A stretch of DNA of 29,769 bases from Bdellovibrionota bacterium (lineage in GTDB: Bacteria; Bdellovibrionota_C; UBA2361; JBGSMV01), in assembly GCA_044356455.1 (NCBI GenBank), contig JBIKWF010000048.1, positions 1-29,769 on the forward strand, given 5' to 3'. Shown piece by piece: positions 81-16,784 of this stretch. A program made the translations under genes and the position numbers. Each line of letters opens with the position of its first letter. The stretch's first letter is position 1. The notes beneath the pieces were generated by a model. The model saw nothing but the letters and a program-made list of their open reading frames with translations, did no database searches and was not told where the DNA came from.

Positions 81-1052
81 ATGCACGGGACCGTCCCTTT
101 CAGCCTACCGGTTCAGCAGTCCCTTGTGGGAGCTGAGGAGATGCTTCTAACGGCTTCAAAAATTGTGTGCGAGAAGCGACTCTATAGTGCCTATTTAGAG
201 CAGGGGGCAGTCGAGCGAACCTGCCCGCGGGAGGAAGTGCTTACTCTCGTTCGTCAATTTGAATTCGGATTTACTCAAAATCGATTCACCTCTCAGCTTC
301 TTCAGAGGGCAACCCAAAGTTTTATAGAGGACAAGCAAAGCCTAGTGCCCGAGGAGAGGGCTCACGAGGAACGCGCCCTCGCTTTTACTAGTTTTCTTGT
401 CGCCCTTAAAAATTATGCCGATACCAAGAAGCACGCAGGGATACTGCCTCTTGTTGCGGGTGCTGCGGGGGCTCCCTTCTTTGAGCTCGGTGTAAAATTG
501 CGCCGGGAGCGTTTTCTCACCTCGCTGCGGCTATCCTCTTTGCATATGCCCAAAAAGGCAGAGCGTATTTCTGGGGGAACGGTGCTCTGCCAAGAGGGCG
601 ATCCGGCGCGCTGCATGTATGTGCTTCTTGAGGGGAAAATTGCAGTGCTGCAGTCACAGAAAGTAGTGGCCCGGATTCAAGAGCCCGGCGAGGCTTTTGG
701 TGAAATGGCGCTCTTTCTTGAAGGGAAGCGTACCGCGAGGCTCGTTGCGGAGATGGATAGTGCAGTGTTCTTAGTGAAAGAAGATGACATGCCTGAGTTC
801 CATCGCTCCCATCCTGAGGTATTTTTTAATGTCGGTGCAACGCTAGCTCAGAGGCTTCAGGCTACGCTAAAGGGGATTCGTTCGGTCTCGGATCGCAAAG
901 CGAATAAGGGGCTCTATCTTGCAGAGCAGATTGCTGAGGGTAAGCGCGAGGTTTCGCAGCTATGGGCTCGATTAGAAGGGCTAAGGAGCATCCCGCGAAA
1001 CGTGGAGTTTGAGATTGTTTTGGATGACTATCGCGCCACATTGGCAGTCTAA
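81..1052 (+). CDS. Cyclic nucleotide-binding (cNMP, Crp-type) domain protein
   Basis: 323-aa ORF with cNMP motifs LCQEGDPARCMYVLLEGKIAV and PGEAFGEMALFLEGKRTARLVA; no clear C-terminal HTH; alternative start ATG at 141. Confidence 0.8.
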   Translation: MHGTVPFSLPVQQSLVGAEEMLLTASKIVCEKRLYSAYLEQGAVERTCPREEVLTLVRQFEFGFTQNRFTSQLLQRATQSFIEDKQSLVPEERAHEERALAFTSFLVALKNYADTKKHAGILPLVAGAAGAPFFELGVKLRRERFLTSLRLSSLHMPKKAERISGGTVLCQEGDPARCMYVLLEGKIAVLQSQKVVARIQEPGEAFGEMALFLEGKRTARLVAEMDSAVFLVKEDDMPEFHRSHPEVFFNVGATLAQRLQATLKGIRSVSDRKANKGLYLAEQIAEGKREVSQLWARLEGLRSIPRNVEFEIVLDDYRATLAV

Positions 1053-1079
1053 GAGAGGCCTCTTGTGAGCAATCGCGGC

Positions 1080-1194
1080 TAGGAGTCTATCCCGTAGAAA
1101 CATAAATCTACACTTTGGACACAATCGGTAGGTAGGCTGTCCCGTTGCCACCACAACATGTAGGGGTAGAAATTTCTTACCGGACAGACTCCTA
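1080..1194. mobile_element. MITE-like element, full copy with imperfect terminal inverted repeats
   Basis: Left end TAGGAGTCTATCCCGTA and right end TACCGGACAGACTCCTA are near reverse complements with TA at both outer ends; the right half recurs at 25997-26053 and 21229-21285. Confidence 0.65.
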
Positions 1195-1200
1195 AGGGGG

Positions 1201-1287
1201 CGTTTAGAAGGGCTAAGGAGTATTCCGCGAAACGTGCAATTTGAGATGATTCTGGATTAACATCGCGCAGCCTTGGCAGCCGGGTAG
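1201..1287 (+). pseudogene. Degenerate duplicate of the 3' end of the upstream cNMP gene
   Basis: Aligns without gaps to 969-1052 (RLEGLRSIPRNVQFEMILD*HRAALAAG* vs RLEGLRSIPRNVEFEIVLDDYRATLAV*); 11 mismatches in the first 68 nt; in-frame TAA. Confidence 0.75.
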
Positions 1288-1322
1288 TGCCGCCAACTTG
1301 TTCGAGATGTTCCTTACCGCCT

Positions 1323-1694
1323 ATGGAAACAGCCGCAGCACGAACCGCCATCGAGCAAACCGTCAACAAGTATTTCCGCGGAATGCATTTTCGCAGCCTA
1401 GAGGAGCTGCGGAGCGTCTTTCATCCGACCGCGCACTTGTATGGGCACTTGAGCGGAGTCTTTTCGCACCGCTCGCTTGAAGAGTGGCTTGAGGGAGTTG
1501 CCTCGCGCCCGGTTCCTGCAGAGAGCGGGGAGCCGTTTGATATGAAAATAATCTCGATTGAGATCACAGGCCAGATCGCTGTAGTAAAGGTTGAAGACTT
1601 GTACCGTGGTTTCTACTTCACAGACTATCTCTCTTTAGTCGAGACCGAAGGGCAGTGGCAGATTGTAAATAAAATTTTTCACTACGATCCCTAA
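1323..1694 (+). CDS. NTF2-like / putative lumazine-binding (Lumazine_bd_2-type) protein
   Basis: Pattern AIEQTVNKYFRG...LRSVFHPTA...FTDYLSLVETEGQWQIVNKIF is typical of this family; ATG at 1323 preferred over the track start at 1287. Confidence 0.85.
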   Translation: METAAARTAIEQTVNKYFRGMHFRSLEELRSVFHPTAHLYGHLSGVFSHRSLEEWLEGVASRPVPAESGEPFDMKIISIEITGQIAVVKVEDLYRGFYFTDYLSLVETEGQWQIVNKIFHYDP

Positions 1695-1737: not shown

Positions 1738-3606
1738 TTATGCGTGACTCACGTATTCCGAACGCACTAAAATACCTGTCGGCTGCAGAAGCCAGTAGCT
1801 AGTGACCGTATTCCGCAGGAAGCTGACGTCATGACTTACGAGGAGTAGAGCACCCTTAAAATCAACGAGGGCTCGCTCGAGCGCACGTCGACTTGAGATA
1901 TCAAGGTGGTTAGTGGGCTCGTCCAGCACTATGATCGATGGCTCCTTCAGAAGGATCTCCGCAACCGCAACTTTGGTACGTTCTCCTCCACTTAGATAGC
2001 GGAGCGGAATCTCTATGCTTGTCGGTTCAAGCTGAAGGTCGCCCAAAACCTGACGTATTCTGCGGTACGAGCTTCGGGAAGTTGACTCGAGTAGTTCGAT
2101 TGAAGTGAGGTTTTCGGCCATCTCGCTTTCAATCTGAGAAAGGTATCCAATCTCAACCCCGGGCCCAATTAGGACCTCGCCTGCAAGAGGGGGAAGATCT
2201 CCCACAAGTGTCTTTAAGAGCGTCGATTTCCCAATTCCATTTCGCCCAATGACTCCGATTCTGCTGGCGGGGGGGATATCTAGCCGCTCAATAGCGGGCA
2301 GCAGGGCTCGAGAGCCGTATCCAATCACTACATTTCGAAGAGAACACATTTGGTCGGGAGGACGCCCCACTGTTCTAAATTTGAGGTTCGCAACTTCCGC
2401 AGGAGAGTGACTGATGCGTGGCAGATCCTTCCTCAGTCGCTCAGCTTTGTCACGGTAGGTTCGGGCTTTGGCTGATGTAGTTCCTCGATTCAACCTCTGG
2501 TAGGTCTCTAAGGCTCTTTCAATCGCTTTCTCCTTTGCTTCATAGCTCCGTTGCTCTGAGAGGTGGGAGCGGGTTTTTTGTTCCTCGAATTGCCTGTAAT
2601 TTCCCGGGTATTCAACAGCTTTCCCATTTTCCAGCTCTACCATGCTCGTGAAGTGCTGATTGAGAAAATCGCGCTCATGGGAAACGCATAAAACAGCCCG
2701 CGGCCATTGAGCGATAAAAGAGCTGAGCCATTGTAGCCCCTCTACGTCCATACTATTCGTCGGTTCATCAAGAATAATTAGATCGGGAGCGTCAAGGACG
2801 ATTTTCGCTAGTAGAAGTCGCGTGAGTTGGCCTCCGCTGAGGGTGTTTACCGCTTGGTATGCAATTTCTCCCCCCAAGCCAAAGGCATCTAACAGCTCAA
2901 AATATCTGCCCTCAATTTCGAATCCATGGCTCCTTTCAAAATTTTCGAGAGCATCACAGAGCTGCTGCGAGTACTTGAAGAGTTCTTGGTCTCTCTTCGC
3001 GCCGGATAGCCTCGCTTGTGCCTCGTCAATTTCACTCCTGAGAAGATTGAGCCGAGTAGGTGCTTTGCGTATCTCTTGCACTACGAGTTGCGTTGACTCA
3101 GCAAATGCCGCTGGAGTCACTTGTGGAAGGTAGGCAAACGTTCGGTCTGGAGCGATGCTCACCGTCCCGCTGTCTGGCAAAATTTCCCCCGAAAGCATCC
3201 TCAAGAGTGTAGATTTACCAGTGCCATTCCTTCCCACTATGGCTTTCTTTTCACTCGCACCTATCGATAAAGTTACCTCCCTCAAGAGTTCACGTTCCCC
3301 GAGCTTCAAGCCAACCTTATAAAATGATGCAACTGCCCCATCTCGTGCGACGGAGCGATCGGAGAAATAGGACGGGAGAGTAAGTGTGGAGGAGGGGTAG
3401 CGCCCCTTTTCCGGAAGTGCGAGTTCTCTTCGGAGTCGCGTGACGATCTCGGCTGCTGAACTAGAATTCCCGTGAGGCAGGAGTTCTGATCCAAGGTGAA
3501 ATAAATCCTGTGCCTCCTTGCGGCCTTTGCCCAGTCGAATTTGTATCTCGCTCACCAACGCCTCGACAACTCCGCTCGGGAGATGGTGACTTGCTTCAAG
3601 ACTCAA
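1738..3606 (-). CDS. ABC-F family ATPase (ribosome-associated, no transmembrane domain)
   Basis: Two ABC domains: GRNGTGKST / LSGGQ / LDEPTN / SHER and GRNGIGKST / LSGGE / LDEPTNHLD / SHD, joined by a helical linker; probable TTG start at 3606 after GAGGAG (track extends to 3774). Confidence 0.9.
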   Translation of the reverse strand: MSLEASHHLPSGVVEALVSEIQIRLGKGRKEAQDLFHLGSELLPHGNSSSAAEIVTRLRRELALPEKGRYPSSTLTLPSYFSDRSVARDGAVASFYKVGLKLGERELLREVTLSIGASEKKAIVGRNGTGKSTLLRMLSGEILPDSGTVSIAPDRTFAYLPQVTPAAFAESTQLVVQEIRKAPTRLNLLRSEIDEAQARLSGAKRDQELFKYSQQLCDALENFERSHGFEIEGRYFELLDAFGLGGEIAYQAVNTLSGGQLTRLLLAKIVLDAPDLIILDEPTNSMDVEGLQWLSSFIAQWPRAVLCVSHERDFLNQHFTSMVELENGKAVEYPGNYRQFEEQKTRSHLSEQRSYEAKEKAIERALETYQRLNRGTTSAKARTYRDKAERLRKDLPRISHSPAEVANLKFRTVGRPPDQMCSLRNVVIGYGSRALLPAIERLDIPPASRIGVIGRNGIGKSTLLKTLVGDLPPLAGEVLIGPGVEIGYLSQIESEMAENLTSIELLESTSRSSYRRIRQVLGDLQLEPTSIEIPLRYLSGGERTKVAVAEILLKEPSIIVLDEPTNHLDISSRRALERALVDFKGALLLVSHDVSFLRNTVTSYWLLQPTGILVRSEYVSHA

Positions 3607-3661
3607 GGTATTCTCCTCGGAAATGTTGCTTCGTAAACACGCCTTCGGCAGTTTCACGAAT

Positions 3662-4459
3662 ATGGCTAAAATACCGCTAAATACTGATATTTCCTTCCCT
3701 CGCGATAACGAGAGAGAGCCTTTTTCTGCTTGCGCAACGAGTGCAAGTTTGGCGCATGCACGGGACCTATACAATCAGTGCAGCGGCGATTCTGAATTCT
3801 TCTCTGATTCTGTGTTTCTTTCTTTTCATCGATTAGTCGAGTCTTATGCTAATTCTTCTTCATGCGGGGAAGTAACAGGCCGAATCGCAAAGTACTATGT
3901 GGGACCCGGCGATAGAGCTTTCGCTGCTGCGCAAGAGTTTCATTTATTACCCTTTGTGATGACGCGCTTTTCACTCGACAGCGAGCAACAAGCATTCCAT
4001 CCCGCCTGTGATTTTCGCTCGACAGGTGGAGCTGAGTATCACATCTGCCCGGATGCTCCGTTCGGTGATGTTATTTTTTGGAAGGGGACTCCTCAAGCCT
4101 TAGTTGCGTATCGCCCCTGTGATCCAGATACCTTGATGATCTGTCAGATCCAGGGCACCAGAGGGTACATTTTTGATTTGGAGACTGGCGCTCCCAGAGA
4201 GACCCATAATCGCGGCTTAGCAAAGTTGCGGTGGAAGGACTTCCTCGTAGAGCATGTCGCTGAGAGGGCGAAGACTCTTGGATTTCGGAATTTGAAGATC
4301 CTCGCACCTGAGAATAATCCGTGGGTGGTTCCTTCGAGAGTTCGCGATGGTCCCCCTCACATGTCTCTTGAGAAGGCAAAAGAGATTTACGACACTATTG
4401 CGTTGAGGCATGGGTTTGAGAAGGCATCTGATGGAAATTGGCATAAGTCTCTTCTCTGA
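3662..4459 (+). CDS. Hypothetical protein, possibly GNAT-like fold
   Basis: Long ORF overlapping the next gene; C-terminal half ICQIQG...LRWKDFLVEHVAERAKTLGFRNLKI...YDTIALRHGF loosely resembles acetyltransferase motifs A and B; start uncertain (3623 or 3662). Confidence 0.6.
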   Translation: MAKIPLNTDISFPRDNEREPFSACATSASLAHARDLYNQCSGDSEFFSDSVFLSFHRLVESYANSSSCGEVTGRIAKYYVGPGDRAFAAAQEFHLLPFVMTRFSLDSEQQAFHPACDFRSTGGAEYHICPDAPFGDVIFWKGTPQALVAYRPCDPDTLMICQIQGTRGYIFDLETGAPRETHNRGLAKLRWKDFLVEHVAERAKTLGFRNLKILAPENNPWVVPSRVRDGPPHMSLEKAKEIYDTIALRHGFEKASDGNWHKSLL

Positions 4460-5375
4460 TTGTCCCCAGGGTCAGGTGTATGTGGCGAGACGTGATATCT
4501 TTCCTCTGAGAGAGAAGGCTGAGGAGCTACTCGCTCGCTGCGTCCAAGATCGCTATATTTCTCCCTTAGTTGAGGAGGAAGACCTTTGGCGCTTTCATGT
4601 CCAATCACCTACAGACTCGGGCTGGTACCGAGATCCGGATCTCGGAAAGCATTTGCTTGATTTGGGATACCACATTGAAGACCTCCCGACGAGCTACACA
4701 CTCTTCCCCGGAAAACTTCCAATCTTATGGTCATTCCATCATTGCTGGGCCCTCCTCGCGTGGTCCTTGATTTTCTCTGACATCGTTTCTTCACGACAGG
4801 TTCGTTTGCTTCATTTTGATGCTCACGACGATATGGCCACTCCTGCTCTTCGCTACCTACCTGATGGGAGCTTTTCTACACCTACAAGCCTCGAAGCCCT
4901 GCGGTTAGAGGACCCTTGGTCAACCCATACTTTTATTCGGCGGGGACTCGTCGGCATTGGTGGATTCATCCAGCCTCTGCTTCAGAGGGTGCCGCACGTT
5001 GAAATGACTCATGTAGTGCCTGCGGGAGAGCAGTTGAGGTCAACGGAAGGGGGAGTTGCTTCGTTTCAACTTAATGCCACCAGTCTCAGGGCATTTCAGG
5101 CCGAGAACTCCAACCCTATATTATTAGACATAGATCTCGATTATTTCTGCAATGAACTAGATAATCATCGCGAGCAGCGGGTACAACTGGACGATGTGAT
5201 CCTGAGCGGGCGAATGTATGAGTTCCTCGCGCTCTTGGAAGAATTTTCTGTCATGAAGAGTGTGATCGGGATCACTTGCTCGCTCTCCGCCGGATTTTAT
5301 CCATCGAGGTTTTGGTCCTTGTTCTTTGATATCCTTCTTCCACGATTACAGCATCTTGCTGCCAGCAATGAGTGA
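4431..5375 (+). CDS. UPF0489 / arginase-fold metalloenzyme (candidate peptide arginase)
   Basis: Motifs HHCWALLAW, LLHFDAHDD (DxHxD), LLDIDLDYF (DxD) and C-terminal SAGFYP; overlaps both neighbours; start at 4410 or 4431. Confidence 0.75.
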   Translation: MEIGISLFSDCPQGQVYVARRDIFPLREKAEELLARCVQDRYISPLVEEEDLWRFHVQSPTDSGWYRDPDLGKHLLDLGYHIEDLPTSYTLFPGKLPILWSFHHCWALLAWSLIFSDIVSSRQVRLLHFDAHDDMATPALRYLPDGSFSTPTSLEALRLEDPWSTHTFIRRGLVGIGGFIQPLLQRVPHVEMTHVVPAGEQLRSTEGGVASFQLNATSLRAFQAENSNPILLDIDLDYFCNELDNHREQRVQLDDVILSGRMYEFLALLEEFSVMKSVIGITCSLSAGFYPSRFWSLFFDILLPRLQHLAASNE

Positions 5376-6855
5376 AGCCCTTCTCGAAAGATTGTATCTT
5401 CGCCTCAAGGGAGTCGCTACGCTTAGCGCTCTTGAGCAGCAAGTGCTGTGGCGAGAAGCTACCCAATGCGTCGATGCCTTCAACCTTCTGCCGAGCAGTA
5501 CCGGTGCCCTCCTTGAGAGTCTTGCTTTGCTCAGACGCCGGCTGCGCGAGGGAGAGGAAACAAGAAGTATGGTCAGGGCTCTGTCGGCGGCTGAACTGTC
5601 GTCTCACGACCACTTCAATGTCGCTCAGATTGCTAGAGAACTGACACGAGACCAGAGAATTCCTGATTCTCTCAAAGACCTGAAAGATTCTCTCATAGCA
5701 AAGGCGATAACAGGATACCGTGCGGCCGAATCCAGCGGCGACTTCCGGATAGTAGAGCCTCTCTATTCGGCCTTATTCAAAGTCTGGCGTCAGGAGTCGT
5801 CCTACTTCCCAGAATATTCTCATCCCTACAATTACTTTCTCGATCTCTTTAGTCCCGGACTTCAGTGGGAGTTTCTTAGAGAAGCCATGCACACACTCGA
5901 TCCAAAGCGATGGATGGCAAAACCTAAGCCGAGAACCTCTTCCCGAAGGGGCCCGCTAGGCGAGCTTCCTCTCGGCGTGGAAGTTCAGAAGTTGGTAATT
6001 GCAAGGATAGCCGAGCACTTTGGTTTGGCGGGCCATCTCGTATGCGCACAGGGTAGCCCAGCACTCTATAATTGTGGGCCAGGAGATCAGCGCCTTGCAC
6101 TTCGCTTCGATCCTTGGGACTTTCGCGTCGCTTTGTTTGATGCGTTGCATGAAATGGGACATGCACTCTATAATTTCCGTCTCCCAAAGCAGTATTGGGG
6201 AGCTCCTTTGGGGAGTGAGGCATCTGTCGCAGCCCAGGAGACCCTCGCGAAGTTTTTTGAGAACTGTTTGGGTCGTGACCCATCGTTTTTATCCTTTATA
6301 TTTTCCCTTGTTCGTGATTTCGCGGCACCTCTCGGTGTGACCTGGGAGCTAGAGGATCTGGTTTGTTCAGCAAATCGGAGAAATTTTTTGCACACTCGGA
6401 TAGACGCAGATGAAGTAACGTATCTATTTCACCTGCGGCATCGACTGGAGCTAGAAGCAGAAATAGCATCGGCACAAATTCTTGATGCGGAGTCTGCTCG
6501 AACACGTTGGAATGAGCTCCACGCGGTTTTTCTTGGAACAAGCCCTCCCTCCGACAAAACCGGGATCCTCCAGGAGGCGAGTTGGGCATACGGGACACTC
6601 GGCTATTTTGGAGCCTATTTCATCGGGAACATTGCAGCATTTCGCCTTTTCCTTCAGCTTCAGGAGTCCTTCCCAAGGGAGCTCACGCCGTGGCTCTGCG
6701 CAGGGGAATGCATGCCTATTCTAGAGTGGCTGGATGAGCGCGTAATTTCTCGTGGCGCGAAAAGTGCGGTGGCTGAGTTTAAGGAAAGCGGCGAGCTCAC
6801 AGAAACGTTTTCCCGTTATCTTGATTCGCTGCGCTCTCGTTACGGCGGGTCCTAA
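5368..6855 (+). CDS. Divergent M32 (carboxypeptidase Taq-like) metallocarboxypeptidase
   Basis: HEMGHALY (HExxH), RIDADEVTY.FH..R.ELE, GILQE..W..G.LGYFGAY.IGN; about 495 aa; ATG at 5368 overlaps the upstream stop (ATGAGTGA). Confidence 0.85.
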   Translation: MSEALLERLYLRLKGVATLSALEQQVLWREATQCVDAFNLLPSSTGALLESLALLRRRLREGEETRSMVRALSAAELSSHDHFNVAQIARELTRDQRIPDSLKDLKDSLIAKAITGYRAAESSGDFRIVEPLYSALFKVWRQESSYFPEYSHPYNYFLDLFSPGLQWEFLREAMHTLDPKRWMAKPKPRTSSRRGPLGELPLGVEVQKLVIARIAEHFGLAGHLVCAQGSPALYNCGPGDQRLALRFDPWDFRVALFDALHEMGHALYNFRLPKQYWGAPLGSEASVAAQETLAKFFENCLGRDPSFLSFIFSLVRDFAAPLGVTWELEDLVCSANRRNFLHTRIDADEVTYLFHLRHRLELEAEIASAQILDAESARTRWNELHAVFLGTSPPSDKTGILQEASWAYGTLGYFGAYFIGNIAAFRLFLQLQESFPRELTPWLCAGECMPILEWLDERVISRGAKSAVAEFKESGELTETFSRYLDSLRSRYGGS

Positions 6856-6878
6856 TCAGTCCTAGAGCTGTCCGACCT

Positions 6879-7613
6879 CTATTCGGCAAAAATCATGAAT
6901 CGAATTCGCGGATAGTCGGTTCTTGGCATACGATGGAGAAGCGGCCTTCCGGACGAGGAGTCACCTTTCCAGATGCCTATTGAGCCTCTCGACATAGACC
7001 GAATTGATTCTTTGCCCGACTTGAGAAACGGCGCCGATTCGTCCATGGTTCTGAGTCTTGCAATACCGAGCTCTTTCTCGTCGCCGCTCTGAAGCCTCTC
7101 GAGTGAGGAAGCGAGACTGTGCCGCGCTTCCCAATAGCTCTGATAGGCTTTCCAGTTAACTTCGTCGTAAAGAGCATACTCTGTTCCCGGCCCGTCGTAC
7201 GTACACAACATCGCAGCTTGATAGCCGTCAGTGTGAAAGATGCAGTCATCAATTGGCAGCTTCCCGCGTGAGAAAATCCCAGAAAAGTAATTGCCCTTTG
7301 TTAAGGAAGCAAAGCAATCAATTTGGGCGAGGATGTCCTCAATCGTCCGATTGGCGATCTCGGTGCCCCCAAGCACCTCTTGAAGTTTCTCGTTGGCAAT
7401 TCGCATGAGTCCAATTGCATCGCCTTCCAAAGACACCGATACTCGCTCCCCAGCCAGGCCTAAAACGGCTCTCGGGTTGGGTGCGTCGGCTCTCTCAATG
7501 AGCAAAAGTTCGGTCTCCTCCGAATGAAACGATGCATGGAGGGCATCGATATCAAGCAGAGAAGAATATACTCCGACAGGGAGCGCGGGTTGATTCTGAA
7601 GAGCGAGTCCCAT
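6879..7613 (-). CDS. DUF1826-like protein (putative Fe(II)/2-oxoglutarate oxygenase fold)
   Basis: FHTDG...LCTYDGPGTEY...KG...LLHRMP...R pattern (HxD...H facial triad); ATG at 7613 with RBS GAGGTG just after the radical SAM stop. Confidence 0.75.
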   Translation of the reverse strand: MGLALQNQPALPVGVYSSLLDIDALHASFHSEETELLLIERADAPNPRAVLGLAGERVSVSLEGDAIGLMRIANEKLQEVLGGTEIANRTIEDILAQIDCFASLTKGNYFSGIFSRGKLPIDDCIFHTDGYQAAMLCTYDGPGTEYALYDEVNWKAYQSYWEARHSLASSLERLQSGDEKELGIARLRTMDESAPFLKSGKESIRSMSRGSIGIWKGDSSSGRPLLHRMPRTDYPRIRFMIFAE

Positions 7614-7623
7614 ATTCACCTCA

Positions 7624-9030
7624 TTAATTACACCGTTGTTCGTGTTCCGAAAGCGCAGGAGATTTCTGTACGTATGGATCGTCTCCGATAAACTCAGCTC
7701 CATAGCCTAGTGCATTGAGTTCTTCGAGATTGCAGGCCACTGCGGCGAAAAGCGTATAATAGAAATCGCAATAGATTGTTCGCTCGTAGCCAGGTCGCTT
7801 GGACTCTTCTTCGCATCCTCCGGCGCATGAATATTTGAATGCACAGGTGCTGCATCCTGGTATCGAATCGAGATTCTTGAAGAAGCGAAAGTTTTTTGGT
7901 GACTGCATCTTCTCTCTGAGGTCGCCCTGGCAGGCGTGTATGTTGCCGAGGGAGTATTCCGGCATGTCCGCAGTTACGTCACAGGGACCAAACCGGCCAT
8001 CGTGGCTTATCGTAATATTTTGAATCTTGTATTCGTTTAGGACACATTTGAGGCACGCATCTGTATAAGTTCCTCCATGAAGTGCCACAAGAACATCTGA
8101 TAGGTTTCGAAATGCTATTTTGTTTCCTCTGCGATGATGGTCTATCACGTAGTCACAAACCTTCAGGACCTCCTCTGTCATCACATTGATATCGGGGAGA
8201 AGCGCTGCTATCTGTTCCCGCCCGTGTGGCATCATCGGTAGAAAATGAAATTTGGTGAACTTTAGGTCCTCAACAAAGTGTTTAGCCGCATCGAAAAGAT
8301 GCCCCTGGTTATTCTTCGTTACGGTAAGAATGGTGTTCTCAACCGTCGTACGCTTTAGATTGGAGAGGATTTTCTCGTAGGTTCCGCCTCGTTTGTTCAC
8401 CTGAACTCTTTGGGAGTCATGAATTTGGGCACGTCCATCGAGACTCGTCCCTACGGTGACACCCAAGGCTCTCAATTCGTCCCTCAGAGCATCAGGGAAG
8501 TGGTAGAGATTGGAATGAGTGTGAAAGGAAGCCTTCGTGGAGCTTGGCATCTTTGCGCGGAACGTGTGCACAAAAAACCGAATTACTTCCATGTTAAGAG
8601 TCGGTTCTCCCCCGTGAAATAATACCTCATAGTAGTCCTGGCCTAGGAGCAGCATCTCATCGATGACCTTAGAAGCCGTCTCTGTAGTCATGCGCCTCGA
8701 TTTCGGCATCGCATTTTCATAGCAATAGGTGCAGCCCATGTTGCAGTGGTCGGCAACCTTTAAGGTCCAGGGGTTTATACTTTTAAATTCTTTCTGTCGG
8801 TGCCACTTCCTCTCAACTATTCCTTTCTCGAGTAATGGATAATGTTCAAAAAGCTCGCGGAGCTCCATCGAGCTTATTTTTTTATGAAGCGCTTCGTTGC
8901 CTGTTACCCATGCGCCCGATCGGATATTGGAAATAAAGCATCGGCCGTTGTTCCCCAGAATACTCGTTACTTTACCGAGTGTCGGATCTTGAATGGTTAC
9001 CTGTTCTTTGATAGCGAATTCCGAAAACAT
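7624..9030 (-). CDS. Radical SAM/SPASM-domain protein, probable peptide maturase
   Basis: CNMGCTYC (CxxxCxxC), FHGGEP, SLDG; SPASM cysteines CLKC...GPC...CSTCAFKYSCAGGC-x14-C; about 85-aa N-terminal extension resembling an RRE. Confidence 0.92.
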   Translation of the reverse strand: MFSEFAIKEQVTIQDPTLGKVTSILGNNGRCFISNIRSGAWVTGNEALHKKISSMELRELFEHYPLLEKGIVERKWHRQKEFKSINPWTLKVADHCNMGCTYCYENAMPKSRRMTTETASKVIDEMLLLGQDYYEVLFHGGEPTLNMEVIRFFVHTFRAKMPSSTKASFHTHSNLYHFPDALRDELRALGVTVGTSLDGRAQIHDSQRVQVNKRGGTYEKILSNLKRTTVENTILTVTKNNQGHLFDAAKHFVEDLKFTKFHFLPMMPHGREQIAALLPDINVMTEEVLKVCDYVIDHHRRGNKIAFRNLSDVLVALHGGTYTDACLKCVLNEYKIQNITISHDGRFGPCDVTADMPEYSLGNIHACQGDLREKMQSPKNFRFFKNLDSIPGCSTCAFKYSCAGGCEEESKRPGYERTIYCDFYYTLFAAVACNLEELNALGYGAEFIGDDPYVQKSPALSEHEQRCN

Positions 9031-9078
9031 AGTGGGATAAGCTCACAACAAGAAGAATGTCAAACGAAGGGCAAGAGA

Positions 9079-9104
9079 GAAGGAGTGGCTTACGCCACTC
9101 CTTC
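9079..9104 (-). terminator. Stem-loop between precursor and radical SAM genes (leaky terminator or mRNA-stabilising hairpin)
   Basis: Perfect 11-bp stem GAAGGAGTGGC / GCCACTCCTTC with a GTAA (GNRA) loop on the minus strand, 7 nt after the peptide stop, followed only by a weak pyrimidine tract (TCTCTT). Confidence 0.75.
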
Positions 9105-9111
9105 GTGAGAC

Positions 9112-9291
9112 CTACTTACGCTGCCAGGACCAGGCGCGCGCGGCTTGACCCGGTGAGGTCTCCGTGGCGACTGACTTCGGCACTGTAATTTCCACTTCCC
9201 CAGATTGAGCAACATCGGCACTTGGTCGACCCGAGGAACGTGCATCAATGGGCTTAGACAGTGAGGGAACTGAGGTTGTTTGAGTTGGCAT
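9112..9291 (-). CDS. Putative RiPP precursor peptide (59 aa) with C-terminal WSWQRK core
   Basis: Translated by hand: MPTQTTSVPSLSKPIDARSSGRPSADVAQSGEVEITVPKSVATETSPGQAARAWSWQRK*; GGAGA RBS 4 nt before the ATG; directly upstream of and co-oriented with the radical SAM gene; just under the apparent 60-aa cutoff of the track. Confidence 0.85.
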   Translation of the reverse strand: MPTQTTSVPSLSKPIDARSSGRPSADVAQSGEVEITVPKSVATETSPGQAARAWSWQRK

Positions 9292-10012
9292 ATATTCTCC
9301 ATTTAACGTTTATTCGCGCCATGACTGTAACATTCTTGCCGCGTCCTCATCGGGCGCGACACTGAAATATTCCGCAGGAATTATGAATATTCATGCACCT
9401 CGTGGCGTGAAACTTGAGAGACGTTACTTGATTGAGATGCCTTTCGTAAGCTTTAAAAGAAATTCTGAATTCTTATCTGAACTGAGATCGGCTCAAGAAA
9501 AACACTCGTGATCTCTTCAGAGAAAGAGCTTACGTTGCGATAAATGCGCACCAGTGGTTTCTCGGTTTCGTAAGGTTTGATTAGCTGGCGGTGATTTCCC
9601 CTAGGAAAGTTTGGTCGCGCCTAAGATATAGGTTTCGTCTTCGAGTCAAATCTCGCGCGTTTCGAATGCGACTAATGTAAAGCGAGAGACACGGACGGAA
9701 GAAAGCGCAATTCAAGATCTTCATGCCTATGACGCCCTCGTCTCCGCTCAGGCGATATTATCGCGGCTGTGAAGCTGGGCTCGCCGTAGTCTTATTTTGG
9801 GGGTAGGGCCTTGGTGTGAAAATCGATAAACCAACACGGCCACTGACACGAGCTGCATCTTCAATTTCCGCCTGTTGCGGCTAACGAGCCGTGTCACCTT
9901 CACCAGGGGAGGCTTGATTGCTGGAATAATTATCTTCAAGATTATGTCACTAGCACGCTGACTATCTGCATAACATCGGTACTTGGGGGGTCTCTCGTCT
10001 AGTGGAGACCTT

Positions 10013-11248
10013 ATGGTTAGTCGATATCTTGTGTCTGGTTGTTCCTTTGCGCTTTCCCTTGTCATTTCGCTGACTTTTGCATCTCCTCGTGTCGAGGCAG
10101 AGACTACCGGTATGGTGGTTCTTCCCGCCGGCCCCGGTCAGTCTAACCCACCGAATTCATCAGATCCTGCTCCTCCAGGGGGAGGCGCGTGTAACCCCGA
10201 TGGCCAGATTTGCCAATCTCACTGTGACCCTCTGATTAACTCTGATGGCTCCCAGATGGTTGATAGTTCTGGTGCGCTCGTGTGTAACCCTGCAACCTAT
10301 GTCTGTGACGTAGTTCCTGAATGTGCCGGCCTTGGCTACGGCTGCGTTTGTGTATTCTATCCCGATCCGCCCACTGGCTCCTCAAGTTCAGAGTCCAGCA
10401 TCTCAAGCTCAAGTTCTGTGTCGTCGGAATCCTCTAGTTCTTCAACAAGTCAGTCACAAAGCTCTTCCTTCTCAAGCAGTTTATCTTCTTCCTCGATGAG
10501 CTCTTCCGAGATCTCATCGAGCGCAAGCTCTGAGCAATCATCGAGCCTTTCTTCAAGCTCAGCTCAGAGTTCTTCAGTAGCGGCGAGTTCTGAGAGCAGC
10601 TCTTCAAGTGTCTCTGAATCGTCGGCGAGCAGTGAGCAATCGAACATCTCTGAGAGCTCCTCCAGTAGTTCCAGCGCGCCGAGCGCTTCATCCGACTCTA
10701 GTCAAGGCAGCGCGGGCAATTCTGAGAGCGCGGCTTCAAGCTCTGCAGTACCTAGTTGCCTCTCGCAGAGCATTGAAGAGAAACAACTGGCGCTAGGATT
10801 AGGGCCAAAAGAGCTTAAAACTTACGCCCTGCGGGCTCACAAGAAACTAATCCGCAGTGCCGCAAAAACAAACAAAACACTTGGGAAGCGGCTTGCACTC
10901 TCCGCCAAGAAATCTGAGAAGAAAATGGACAAATACATTCTTGAAGCTACGGTAGCTCTTAATGCACTCCCTAAGGTGGTGCTGATCTGCCCACTGGATG
11001 AGCCGGGCTGCACGAGCATTGATCACAGCGCACTCATTGAGCAGCATCGCCGGGCAGTAATTAAACTTCGTCAGCTCGTTATTCGGATGCTTAATCGCGC
11101 CACCCGCCTTGTTTACGGGGGCACGGTGAAGGCTAGAAAAGCTACCTCAGCTCATGGCAAAGGTGCGAGGAGAATTAGCAAGGGCTTGGTAGCTGATGCT
11201 GATGCACTGCCGAAGTATCACTCAGAGTGCCCTCAGTTTCAGATGTGA
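10013..11248 (+). CDS. Secreted protein: Cys-rich N-domain, Ser-rich linker, basic helical C-domain
   Basis: Hydrophobic N-terminal signal (…SPRVEA), 7 Cys in about 55 aa, Ser-rich tract of about 120 aa, Lys/Arg-rich C-terminus with 4 Cys; ATG at 10013 after GGAG. Confidence 0.75.
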   Translation: MVSRYLVSGCSFALSLVISLTFASPRVEAETTGMVVLPAGPGQSNPPNSSDPAPPGGGACNPDGQICQSHCDPLINSDGSQMVDSSGALVCNPATYVCDVVPECAGLGYGCVCVFYPDPPTGSSSSESSISSSSSVSSESSSSSTSQSQSSSFSSSLSSSSMSSSEISSSASSEQSSSLSSSSAQSSSVAASSESSSSSVSESSASSEQSNISESSSSSSSAPSASSDSSQGSAGNSESAASSSAVPSCLSQSIEEKQLALGLGPKELKTYALRAHKKLIRSAAKTNKTLGKRLALSAKKSEKKMDKYILEATVALNALPKVVLICPLDEPGCTSIDHSALIEQHRRAVIKLRQLVIRMLNRATRLVYGGTVKARKATSAHGKGARRISKGLVADADALPKYHSECPQFQM

Positions 11249-14634: not shown

Positions 14635-15651
14635 CTACGAGTATTGAGCGAAGGAGCAGATCTCCCCGTTTAGCATTACCCCTAAACGAAGCGCGGCAAT
14701 TTCTCGCGTAAGCACCTTATTCGAGGAAGGACTAAGCGAGATGAGGGCTCTGGCGCCGCTGTCTAACGCGCCCAGCATATTTGCCGCATTATCCTCAAGG
14801 ACAGCCACAGAACTCATGGAGGTGAAGCGCTCTTTTAGGGCCCTTTGAGCTGCTGCGATCCACAGTTCACCCATTGCCTTAGCTCTTGGGAACTCGCGGC
14901 GCGAAAATGTGTCACATCCTTGATACGACGATATATAAGGATCCGCCCCCACCTCGCAGGCAAGCGCTTGAACTATGCTGGTTGGTGTCATGGTCACTAC
15001 GTGGAGCTCAAGACCTTCCTGCGCAAGGTGTGCCAGGAAAGGAACGAAGAGAGGTTGTGGAAGAATCGGACTTTCAAAGGAGAGCGCGCCCGCAGAAAGT
15101 GCATGCCCGAGTTTATCGGTAGCTTCATGAAAGCCGGCGACAATCTCCTGAGTAAGTTCAGCCGAAGCTCCGTATGCCTGCAGAATGTTCTCAACCAGAT
15201 TAGTAGCCATCAGCACATCCCAGGGGACGCCGTGAGGAGCGATGGTACATCCAACTAAGGTAGAGGCTCGAGAGAGGTATGCCTCTTGTAAAAACTGAAC
15301 ATTTCCGACGTAGGCTGCTTCAGCTTCATCGAGAGTCAGGGCAATTCCTCTCTGGGCGGCGAATGTCGTAAAGGCAGGGACGTGAAGCAGGGCTTCTCTT
15401 GCAATCCAGCCGTGAACTTTGCCATTCACCGGGATCACGCAGCCGTCAAAATCCACAAGAAGTGTCCTGATGCCAGAGTCTTTTAGGGCCTGGGAGATTT
15501 GAGAGAACGTGCGTTCAGAGGACGAAAGTCCACGCTCGATAAGGGTGCCGAGCCATCCAGATTGAGCGGGCGCCATTCGGTCTAGCGCCCTATCTAAGAC
15601 GGCAGAATGGGAGCGACCTGAGCCAAAGTGCCTTTCAAGCTGTGTATTCAT
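14635..15651 (-). CDS. HAD-superfamily hydrolase (phosphatase-like)
   Basis: Motif I LLVDFDG, motif II VVT, motif IV VLEDNAAN; start overlaps the upstream Fic-like gene stop (ATGA). Confidence 0.75.
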   Translation of the reverse strand: MNTQLERHFGSGRSHSAVLDRALDRMAPAQSGWLGTLIERGLSSSERTFSQISQALKDSGIRTLLVDFDGCVIPVNGKVHGWIAREALLHVPAFTTFAAQRGIALTLDEAEAAYVGNVQFLQEAYLSRASTLVGCTIAPHGVPWDVLMATNLVENILQAYGASAELTQEIVAGFHEATDKLGHALSAGALSFESPILPQPLFVPFLAHLAQEGLELHVVTMTPTSIVQALACEVGADPYISSYQGCDTFSRREFPRAKAMGELWIAAAQRALKERFTSMSSVAVLEDNAANMLGALDSGARALISLSPSSNKVLTREIAALRLGVMLNGEICSFAQYS

Positions 15652-16433
15652 AAGATTCCCTTTTTCTTGCCACCCTCAGCCTGCGAGCGTGCAAAGAGAT
15701 CAGCCGCGCTGGTTTGAGGGCCAATGTCGGAGCGTTCGCCCACAAGAAAGGGGCGAATTCGAAAGGGGGAGTAGTGCGGCTCTGACAGCTGCTCAAGTCC
15801 CCAGTTCTTCCTTAGGATATTTATCATTGGTGCTAAATCATGGGTGCGCTGCACTGTTCTTAGCGCGGAATAGTAATCATCATGCGTAGGTGAATCGAAG
15901 GACCAGTGAGGCAGTGAACCAAAGACGTGCGCCAGCCAGACAGAAGCTTGAAGCCTCGTGGTTCGCTTGTTCCCATCATTCACTGGCTGAATGCATTTTG
16001 CGCGAATGTGAAAGAACGCCGCAGAAGCAAGAACGGAATCTAACGTCGCTGCTTCGCCAAGAAGCTTCGGAAGCTGCAAACGCAATAGTTCCCACTCGGT
16101 GGTGATGCGTGAGGGATCTGCCGGCATGGAGACTCCTGCCGTTACCGCTTTCGATCGTAGAACTCCAGCCTCCTTATAGAGGTTCCCAAAGAGCATCTTG
16201 TGTACTTCGAGGGTCGTTTCAAGGGATACAAGGGCATCAAAGTTAAGGCTCAAAAGGTGCTTTACCGTAGCGGGATAGGCCGATAGAAACCGCTTTTGAT
16301 ATTCATCGAGGGTTGTTACTTCGGGAAGCAAGATCCCTCGATCTTTCAAGCGCTTCCAGGCGTCTCCTTGCAAGGGCGACGAGCTTGGATTTGGGGCTCC
16401 TGAGCCGCCATTTTGAGGCTGAATATTGCCCAT
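15648..16433 (-). CDS. Fic/Doc-family protein with degenerate active-site motif
   Basis: EVHKMLFGNLYKEAGVLR and IQPVNDGNKRTTR (canonical HPFxDGNGRxxR); ATG at 16433 preferred, track start 16565. Confidence 0.75.
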   Translation of the reverse strand: MGNIQPQNGGSGAPNPSSSPLQGDAWKRLKDRGILLPEVTTLDEYQKRFLSAYPATVKHLLSLNFDALVSLETTLEVHKMLFGNLYKEAGVLRSKAVTAGVSMPADPSRITTEWELLRLQLPKLLGEAATLDSVLASAAFFHIRAKCIQPVNDGNKRTTRLQASVWLAHVFGSLPHWSFDSPTHDDYYSALRTVQRTHDLAPMINILRKNWGLEQLSEPHYSPFRIRPFLVGERSDIGPQTSAADLFARSQAEGGKKKGIL

Positions 16434-16784
16434 ACTTCTGTCTTGATTATCATAGGGGATAGCCTTAGTCTTGCGTTGGGCCTGTCCCGGCAGAATGCCC
16501 GGGAGGTGGAGAAGAGTAATGTCAGCAGCAAGCTCCCTTGTTAGTCCAAGTATGCAGGCCGCCATGGCAAAGCTTACCGGCGGTGCGAACCGTGCAACGG
16601 TTACTGATGCGGACGCGGCGGATCACGGGAAGGCTGCGCTTTCAATTGAAGGTCTTGGTGGCGGGCTTGCAGTTCCTAGTCATGCCGGGCCAACGGGCAT
16701 TGGCAGCGCCAGAGAGCTTCCTCAACTCGGGGCTCTCAAGGCTGCCCCCTCTGAGAAGTAATTCTTAATTTGAACCTACGTACA

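Follow-up and report, generated by a model that had tools for sequence, protein, structure and literature searches.

A 59-residue peptide as the probable precursor of a new family of radical-SAM-modified peptides in a Bdellovibrionota genome

We analyzed a contig of 29,769 nucleotides from a Bdellovibrionota bacterium (hereafter the window, meaning this stretch at its full length) and found that a short open reading frame (ORF) on its minus strand, at 9112–9291, very probably encodes the precursor of a peptide that is made on the ribosome and modified after translation (RiPP), with the neighboring radical S-adenosylmethionine (SAM)/SPASM enzyme at 7624–9030 as its maturase. Our overall reading, held with moderate confidence, is that the 59-residue product is the precursor of a new family of radical-SAM RiPPs whose product is probably a Trp–Arg cyclophane; the locus is best filed as a new family inside this known class. 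An earlier annotation made from the letters alone, here called the sequence-only reading, had proposed a RiPP precursor for the adjacent enzyme, possibly of a new family, with a darobactin-like W-x-W-x-R core. The precursor assignment is well supported and the new family is probable, the enzyme lying under all curated family cut-offs and the peptide having no homologue in collections of 5.8 billion and 1.84 billion sequences; the darobactin-like character found no support in the form proposed.

Translation of the 9112–9291 frame yields MPTQTTSVPSLSKPIDARSSGRPSADVAQSGEVEITVPKSVATETSPGQAARAWSWQRK, followed by a stop codon, and the peptide ends in AARAWSWQRK*. Half of its residues are Ser, Ala, Pro or Thr (S10, A7, P6 and T6), Phe, Tyr, His, Cys and Asn are all missing, and no Asp or Glu occurs beyond E44. 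W54 and W56 are the only aromatic residues, in agreement with the earlier description of an aromatic-free leader with both Trp among the last six positions. We take residues 1–53 as the putative leader and WSWQRK (54–59) as the putative core. The same reading had remarked that a seventh aromatic residue is missing and that the leader does not look like that of DarA; the core indeed has six residues and the leader is unrelated. The ribosome-binding site was also found as described, with GGAG five bases before the ATG, as was the position just upstream of the enzyme gene, which lies 81 bases away on the same strand. The ORF had been called hidden, which is true at most of the gene track that this reader was given: a public protein collection already contains the identical 59-residue product as a called gene (P0073), and the ORF was therefore not hidden from every gene caller. 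To score the frames by codon usage, 1768 long ORFs from this genome served as reference; the 9112–9291 frame reached +3.3 bits, a value attained by 0.7% of 3000 shuffles, and the remaining five frames scored −7 to −29.

The maturase has the cysteine equipment of its class. Its SPASM domain scored 22.9 bits against Pfam (cut-off 21.5), its CxxxCxxC motif corresponds to C96, C100 and C103, and eight more cysteines (C326, C329, C350, C367, C393, C396, C402 and C406) are, like these three, invariant in 8/8 aligned sequences, with C393-x2-C396-x5-C402-x3-C406 as a family-invariant arrangement. The radical SAM motif is accordingly accompanied by a SPASM cysteine set for two auxiliary clusters. At the same time, the enzyme falls far below every curated NCBIfam family cut-off. 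PapB was the best curated model (127.4 bits, cut-off 340) and anSME the second best (112 bits, cut-off 349); the others were QhpD (103, cut-off 453), DynA (99, cut-off 450), SCIFF (93, cut-off 425), DarW (74, cut-off 650), YhhB (NF041707; 66, cut-off 445), DarE (NF038005; 60.7, cut-off 650), FxsB (TIGR04269; 51, cut-off 370) and AmcB (NF041718; 49, cut-off 425). The model ranking was the same for three homologues, with PapB at 114–140 bits across 4/4 members scanned and DarE at 64–81 bits among the homologues.

Searches outlined a small family. Among 5.8 billion proteins, the enzyme had 72 matches, of which seven (P0002–P0008, 43–51% identity) form the true family; the rest comprised one 100%-identical fragment and, as next best, a protein of 26% identity. 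A metagenome scan returned 80 loci, one of them in the family (L022, 44%) and the other 79 at 22–34% identity. No family member was found in 60 related genomes (best non-self match, 27%, among 61 with that of the window included), in one genome per GTDB species (two loci at 23–28% identity, outside the family), in viral contigs (28 loci, none belonging) or on plasmids (best match, 28%). The maturase family therefore has eight known members, none of which has been characterized.

The AlphaFold model of the enzyme (predicted local distance difference test, pLDDT, 70.8) was closest among solved folds to anSME (4k39; Z 23.2, root-mean-square deviation (rmsd) 3.8, 325 aligned residues), followed by CteB (5why; Z 21.9, rmsd 4.8, 367 aligned, covering model residues 19–437), ChlB (9gmc; Z 20.5, rmsd 4.4, 327 aligned) and SuiB (5v1q; Z 15.3, rmsd 4.7, 297 aligned). 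Within the full-length fold, the N-terminal 67 residues form four strands and two helices with a pLDDT of about 85. The alignment to anSME starts at model residue 84 and that to CteB at residue 19, so the N-terminal domain corresponds in position to the peptide-recognition region of CteB; by its modeled shape, this part of the chain, some 70 residues long, may be a recognition domain akin to the RiPP recognition element (RRE).

A predicted complex would fit such a role. The job combined the peptide with the enzyme, given as an 8-row alignment, and added SAM and three [4Fe-4S] clusters; it scored 0.82, and the best of three controls 0.54. Of 157 solved complexes, 116 pass the mark applied, as do 2 of 215 mismatched pairs. 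No fewer than 33% of contacts recurred between runs; the partner had a pLDDT of at least 39. In the model, peptide residues 31–41 (GEVEITVPKSV) contact enzyme residues 41–51 and 64–70, and we predict that they form the leader recognition strand, while residues 56–59 (WQRK) contact the barrel residues 89, 137, 172, 234, 262, 264 and 308–329.

The metagenomic locus L022, which encodes the homologue P0007 and is the sole homologue locus read at the DNA level, has a counterpart of the precursor gene. Directly upstream of its radical SAM gene, on the same strand and preceded by AAGGAGA, stands an ORF of 64 codons, followed at the matching position by a hairpin (z −3.76). Its product is unrelated in sequence to the window peptide and has two relatives, 77% and 51% identical; the longest contig recorded for one of these relatives, P0075, and for the maturase homologue P0008 is in both cases 84288. 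All three peptides carry a double core, two copies of [SA][GA]DW[HR]KCA[SA]P[LI][DE]P behind a Trp-free leader. The maturases of the two clades are 40–44% identical, and what their peptides have in common is a Trp-free leader and a W-x-(K/R) core (WQR in the window, WHK or WRK in the sister clade), not W-x-W. The sequence-only reading had proposed to look for a conserved C-terminal WxWx[RK] upstream of homologues; at L022, the Trp-core small ORF was found and the exact pattern was not. A small ORF with Trp cores accompanies the family, which refutes the outcome of a maturase without a precursor. Fused W1–W3 and W3–R5 rings had also been proposed: the Trp-x-Arg/Lys element of that proposal recurs in both clades, but each sister core has one Trp, and a W1–W3 ring therefore cannot be the common chemistry of the family. 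Two further genes were seen at L022, a class I/II aminotransferase-like gene after the radical SAM gene (3330–4451, plus strand) and a major facilitator superfamily transporter before it on the opposite strand (347–1570, minus strand).

For the window peptide, we propose a route in which the precursor, the hairpin behind it, the maturase gene and the adjoining DUF1826 gene (Table 1) would be transcribed as a single unit, the hairpin perhaps keeping the precursor message in excess. As the complex model predicts, the N-terminal domain of the maturase would bind the leader strand around V33–V37 and the C-terminal WQRK would enter the SAM/[4Fe-4S] barrel. A 5′-deoxyadenosyl radical would then take a side-chain hydrogen from R58, and the carbon radical left on R58 would attack the W56 indole, closing a W-Q-R cyclophane of three residues at a cost of 2 Da, whether or not W54 is also tied into the crosslink. 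The DUF1826 protein, a look-alike of Fe/2-oxoglutarate (2OG) oxygenases, could oxidize the peptide afterwards and, more speculatively, the products of the peptide-arginase-like and M32 genes might convert or trim the ...RK tail (Arg to ornithine, removal of Lys59).

We infer the W-Q-R cyclophane from the shared W-x-K/R motif together with the chemistry of known enzymes. At WPR motifs, WprB joins Trp-C5 to Arg-Cγ, and among the precursors of its sequence cluster are some with one WYK, WNK, WDK, WGK or WNR (PMC11851443). XncB joins Trp-C6 to Asn or Arg (PMC11851443, SI Table S1), and at W-x-K/R motifs DarE forms its link between Trp and either Lys or Arg (PMC9055067). An oxygenase partner also has a precedent in the mic cluster, where a 2OG/Fe enzyme stands beside a triceptide radical SAM enzyme; MicC (9VKM), a 2OG/Fe enzyme of formerly unknown function, cuts off the C-terminal follower in that triceptide pathway (PMC12912966).

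Compared with characterized systems, the locus resembles the triceptide, daropeptide and WprB-type cyclophane systems and belongs to none of their enzyme families, WprB being judged by description. In triceptide pathways (XyeB/XncB, PauB, YhhB, GrrM/OscB, FxsB, ChlB and MicB), a radical SAM/SPASM enzyme likewise acts on an aromatic1-X2-X3 motif, present here as WSW and WQR and in the sister clade as WHK or WRK. A Trp-to-Arg link is known for XncB (PMC11851443), ChlB is a strong structural match of the window enzyme, and MicC provides a 2OG/Fe partner in such clusters (PMC12912966), the presumed partner here being the DUF1826 protein. The window enzyme nevertheless misses the YhhB, FxsB and AmcB cut-offs by far, and its core is a single site placed at the extreme C-terminus, where the candidates WSW and WQR overlap. 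In the WprB/WgkB group (RaS-RiPP cluster C11), W-x-R/K is the site of a Trp-to-Arg/Lys C–C bond, the repeated WprB cores (WPRH three times) recall the doubled cores of the sister clade, and some of the precursors are small peptides that bear the motif close to their C-terminus (PMC11851443). By its description, WprB differs in having a twitch domain without Aux I cysteines and a separate partner, WprC, whereas in the window enzyme the SPASM cysteines are complete and the N-terminal domain belongs to the same chain; among the C11 precursors listed, none resembles the window peptide.

In daropeptides (DarA/DarE), too, a W-x-W-x-(K/R) pattern ends a leader-bearing peptide of about 60 residues served by a single radical SAM/SPASM maturase, and W54-S-W56-Q-R58 meets the core pattern described in PMC9055067 and PMC12912966. 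One reading would accordingly have a single enzyme make a darobactin-type fused bicycle, with a W54–O–W56 ether and a W56–R58 C–C bond, as a convergent product of a lineage outside DarE. The terminus WSWQR fits the aromatic1-x-aromatic3 plus W3-x-(K/R)5 pattern, and the C-terminal residues sit in the barrel of the complex model. The sequence-only reading was right that Arg5 variants exist: Yersinia encodes WNWx(K/R)xF cores, DarE accepts Arg5 and makes WNWSRSF bicyclic, and a follower is missing from some of the daropeptide precursors (PMC9055067). DynA is, moreover, the third-best curated model for the family as a whole (98–121 bits). We nevertheless consider this bicycle rather improbable. 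DarE and DarW reach 60.7 and 74 bits against cut-offs of 650 each, and PapB, anSME, QhpD and DynA all score higher than DarE; the relatives of the window enzyme are paired with single-Trp cores, and a two-aromatic ether is thus not a family trait; the leaders are unrelated; the core stops at six residues where darobactin has seven, and its last residue is not aromatic; and a Pfam scan of 12 ORFs turned up no exporter resembling DarBCD. The darobactin analogy is a five-letter resemblance, not a relationship.

Several observations weigh against the Trp–Arg cyclophane reading or against the peptide itself. The codon score of +3.3 is low, as windows of real genes average 12 with a fifth percentile of 2.7. 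A word-indexed search of 5.8 billion proteins returned the peptide itself only, and phmmer against 1.84 billion representatives returned the peptide and one low-complexity match of 1100 residues (P0077). The W-x-(K/R) motif is short, and by a rough estimate about 8% of random 59-mers contain one. Neither a leader protease nor a dedicated exporter was found in the operon in the Pfam scan of 12 ORFs, and the tailoring genes are tied to the precursor by adjacency in a single genome only. The complex job lies outside its calibration, having used its own 8-row alignment and riding ligands, and its pass may mirror likeness to maturase–leader complexes that are already solved (CteB, SuiB and ChlB) rather than binding. 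Finally, the sister cores keep an invariant Cys, with Asp or Glu at −4 and +5; with PapB, which forms Cys-to-Asp thioethers, as the best model, the sister clade may make thioethers, and the shared W-x-K/R would then be a coincidence.

The last point leads to a reading in which the peptide is a true precursor with other chemistry: a Trp–Lys59 or W54–W56 C–C link, epimerization, or β-hydroxylation or another change at Q57, R58 or K59, with ranthipeptide-like Cys–Asp/Glu thioethers in the sister clade. PapB, a ranthipeptide enzyme, gave the best curated model in 4/4 members scanned without reaching its cut-off, conserved acidic residues flank the invariant Cys of the sister cores, and clades only 40–44% identical leave room for different chemistry. 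The window peptide itself is free of Cys and, beyond E44, of Asp and Glu, so its own modification is not thioether chemistry; besides, no residue class other than Trp distinguishes the cores in both clades. We regard this alternative as unlikely, though deserving more weight than the fused bicycle. More improbable than either is that the 9112–9291 frame is open by chance or lies in an untranslated leader, with the enzyme acting on some other substrate, be it a protein or a small molecule. The lack of homologues in the searched protein sets, the weak codon score and the rank of anSME as closest solved fold and second-best curated model would suit this reading. Conversely, the Shine–Dalgarno sequence, position and strand of the ORF all fit a precursor gene, its frame is the only one of six with a positive codon score, a conserved small ORF occupies the same spot in the sister clade, the N-terminal domain of the maturase has no anSME counterpart, the complex prediction exceeds its controls, and the scan of 12 ORFs revealed neither a sulfatase nor a QhpC-like gene.

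A precursor of a new radical-SAM RiPP family thus remains our preferred reading. Peptides cross-linked by radical SAM enzymes include darobactin and dynobactin, leads against Gram-negative bacteria. What is unusual here is how small the C-terminal core is, with its WSW and WQR motifs overlapping, together with the putative DUF1826 partner; a six-residue core of this kind offers a compact test of the choice between ether, Trp–Trp and Trp–Arg links. The locus is a concrete and cheaply testable genome-mining lead, and no surprise to the field.

Table 1 Features of the window discussed in the text
Feature	Coordinates	Strand	Description
Precursor peptide gene	9112–9291	−	59 aa; basis: open frame and translation, codon usage, identical called protein P0073, complex-model contacts
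Shine–Dalgarno sequence GGAG	9297–9300	−	AATAT (5 bases) between GGAG and ATG; read from sequence
Hairpin	9079–9104	−	11-bp stem, GUAA loop; starts 7 bases past the precursor stop, ahead of the radical SAM gene
Radical SAM/SPASM maturase	7624–9030	−	468 aa; Pfam Radical_SAM, Fer4_12 and SPASM domains
DUF1826 protein	6879–7613	−	244 aa from ATG 7613; Pfam PF08856, 41.6 bits (cut-off 22)
M32 (Taq-type) metallocarboxypeptidase	5326–6855	+	509 aa; PF02074, 215.5 bits; HEMGH at residue 275
Peptide-arginase-like protein	4410–5375	+	321 aa; UPF0489, 26.9 bits (cut-off 27)
278-aa protein	3623–4459	+	No Pfam match
ABC-F ATPase	1738–3774	−	678 aa; NF000355 ribosomal protection-like ABC-F, 370.3 bits (cut-off 380)

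Downstream of the precursor gene, a 101-nt stretch containing the hairpin folds at −33.7 kcal/mol (z −3.84), with 1 of 200 shuffles equally stable; the hairpin lacks a clean U tract and may serve as an intra-operon attenuator or messenger RNA stabilizer. Ten bases separate the maturase stop from the DUF1826 start codon (7613), and a longer form of the DUF1826 ORF, starting at 7703, overlaps the maturase gene. A scan for sigma-70 promoters found none upstream of the 59-codon ORF, with two sites in the region against 2.7 expected. Of the 24 runs listed, none was an RNA data set containing the locus. Comparison of 6800–9500 with contigs of four other lake-water runs gave no differences; cover was patchy (bins 9166–9256 in one run only) and the sequences identical, and the comparison is therefore uninformative on selection. 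At the DNA level, only four short matches link the region to the four closest relatives, so the borders of an island cannot be drawn. In these four genomes (81–93% complete), the radical SAM, DUF1826 and arginase-like genes were not found.

The DUF1826 gene encodes a putative Fe(II)/2OG oxygenase. An atlas comparison placed its product with DUF1826 clusters (feature score 0.95; structural template modeling score, TM, 0.71), and past the initial Met the invariant residues in 11/11 sequences of the phylum are H127, D129, H227, P230 and R236. With its model (pLDDT 63) as query, all Foldseek matches listed were Fe/2OG enzymes, at a TM of only 0.3–0.4: the CurA halogenase (E 4e-4), CsiD, TtnM, KDM5A and KdoO. 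The HxD...H...R signature (H127-x-D129, H227 and R236), together with model matches confined to Fe(II)/2OG enzymes, leads us to suggest that the DUF1826 family may be an unrecognized oxygenase clade. A DUF1826 profile matched no chain among PDB sequences at E up to 0.1. Inspection by eye found no radical SAM-like large ORF beside DUF1826 in nine other genomes of the phylum (10 loci). The signature is kept by the window protein and at loci L142–L152. In the parts of the literature consulted, DUF1826 is mentioned only beside COG0523 zinc-chaperone genes, and the present locus would give the family a first functional context, probably that of an Fe/2OG oxygenase acting in the maturation of a peptide.

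The protein encoded at 4410–5375 recalls the peptide arginases OspR, FlmR and OhkR. The NCBIfam model of FlmR/OhkR (NF052474) matched its residues 111–148 with 41.6 bits against a cut-off of 350, and its best match among PDB sequences was OspR (8BRP, E 0.21), a very weak similarity, as is its UPF0489 score just under the cut-off. In the alignment to OspR, LLHFDAHDD pairs with LLHVDEHSD and LDIDLDYF with LDIDIDYF; the H...DxHxD...DxD pattern of peptide arginases, which in OhkR binds two Mn ions (H, DxHxD and DxD; PMC12703449), is therefore kept as candidate metal ligands H111, D137/H139/D141 and D240/D242. The putative core does contain an Arg. About 100 extra N-terminal residues set the protein apart from the known enzymes, and a search of 123 other genomes of the phylum did not recover it. 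The M32 gene, convergent to the maturase operon, is the only M32 gene found in the genome, and its product is 27–31% identical to those found in three of the four closest relatives. By their adjacency in one genome only, the arginase-like and M32 genes may belong to the cluster. None of the DUF1826, arginase and M32 genes occurs at L022, and this tailoring set is therefore not common to both clades. If the arginase-like and carboxypeptidase genes do act on the peptide, the cluster would join tailoring steps for which we found no report of a common occurrence.

An extended scenario would join all these genes: a convergent, darobactin-like WSWQR bicycle reshaped by the DUF1826 oxygenase, by a peptide arginase (Arg to ornithine) and by the M32 enzyme (removal of Lys59), with the ABC-F ATPase giving self-protection and the ribosome rather than BamA as target. 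We regard it as a long shot, less probable even than the chance frame. A role of the ABC-F gene as an accessory resistance or self-protection gene is in itself speculative; the protein has about 150 extra N-terminal residues, and its best matches in the four closest relatives are 29–32% identical. An MMPL transporter, like the ABC-F ATPase, flanks the region.

Among the remaining genes, that of the 278-residue protein has a product close in the atlas (feature score 0.96) to a cluster with DUF535 in 18% of its members, and structural matches were GNAT acetyltransferases at a TM of 0.36–0.46 by query; we take a DUF535/VirK-like assignment and a GNAT-like fold as no more than a lead. The three plus-strand genes in 3623–6855 overlap by 50 bases each as listed (4410–4459 and 5326–5375), and the real starts may lie further downstream or translation may be coupled. 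On the plus strand, 9983–11248 encodes a protein of 421 residues whose N-terminal part has a hydrophobic segment; it also contains a Cys-rich stretch and a near-pure Ser run of about 150 residues, and it matched neither Pfam nor NCBIfam. Further along, 14635–16565 on the minus strand encodes a tandem Fic/DOC-domain protein and a HAD-like hydrolase, unrelated to the precursor.

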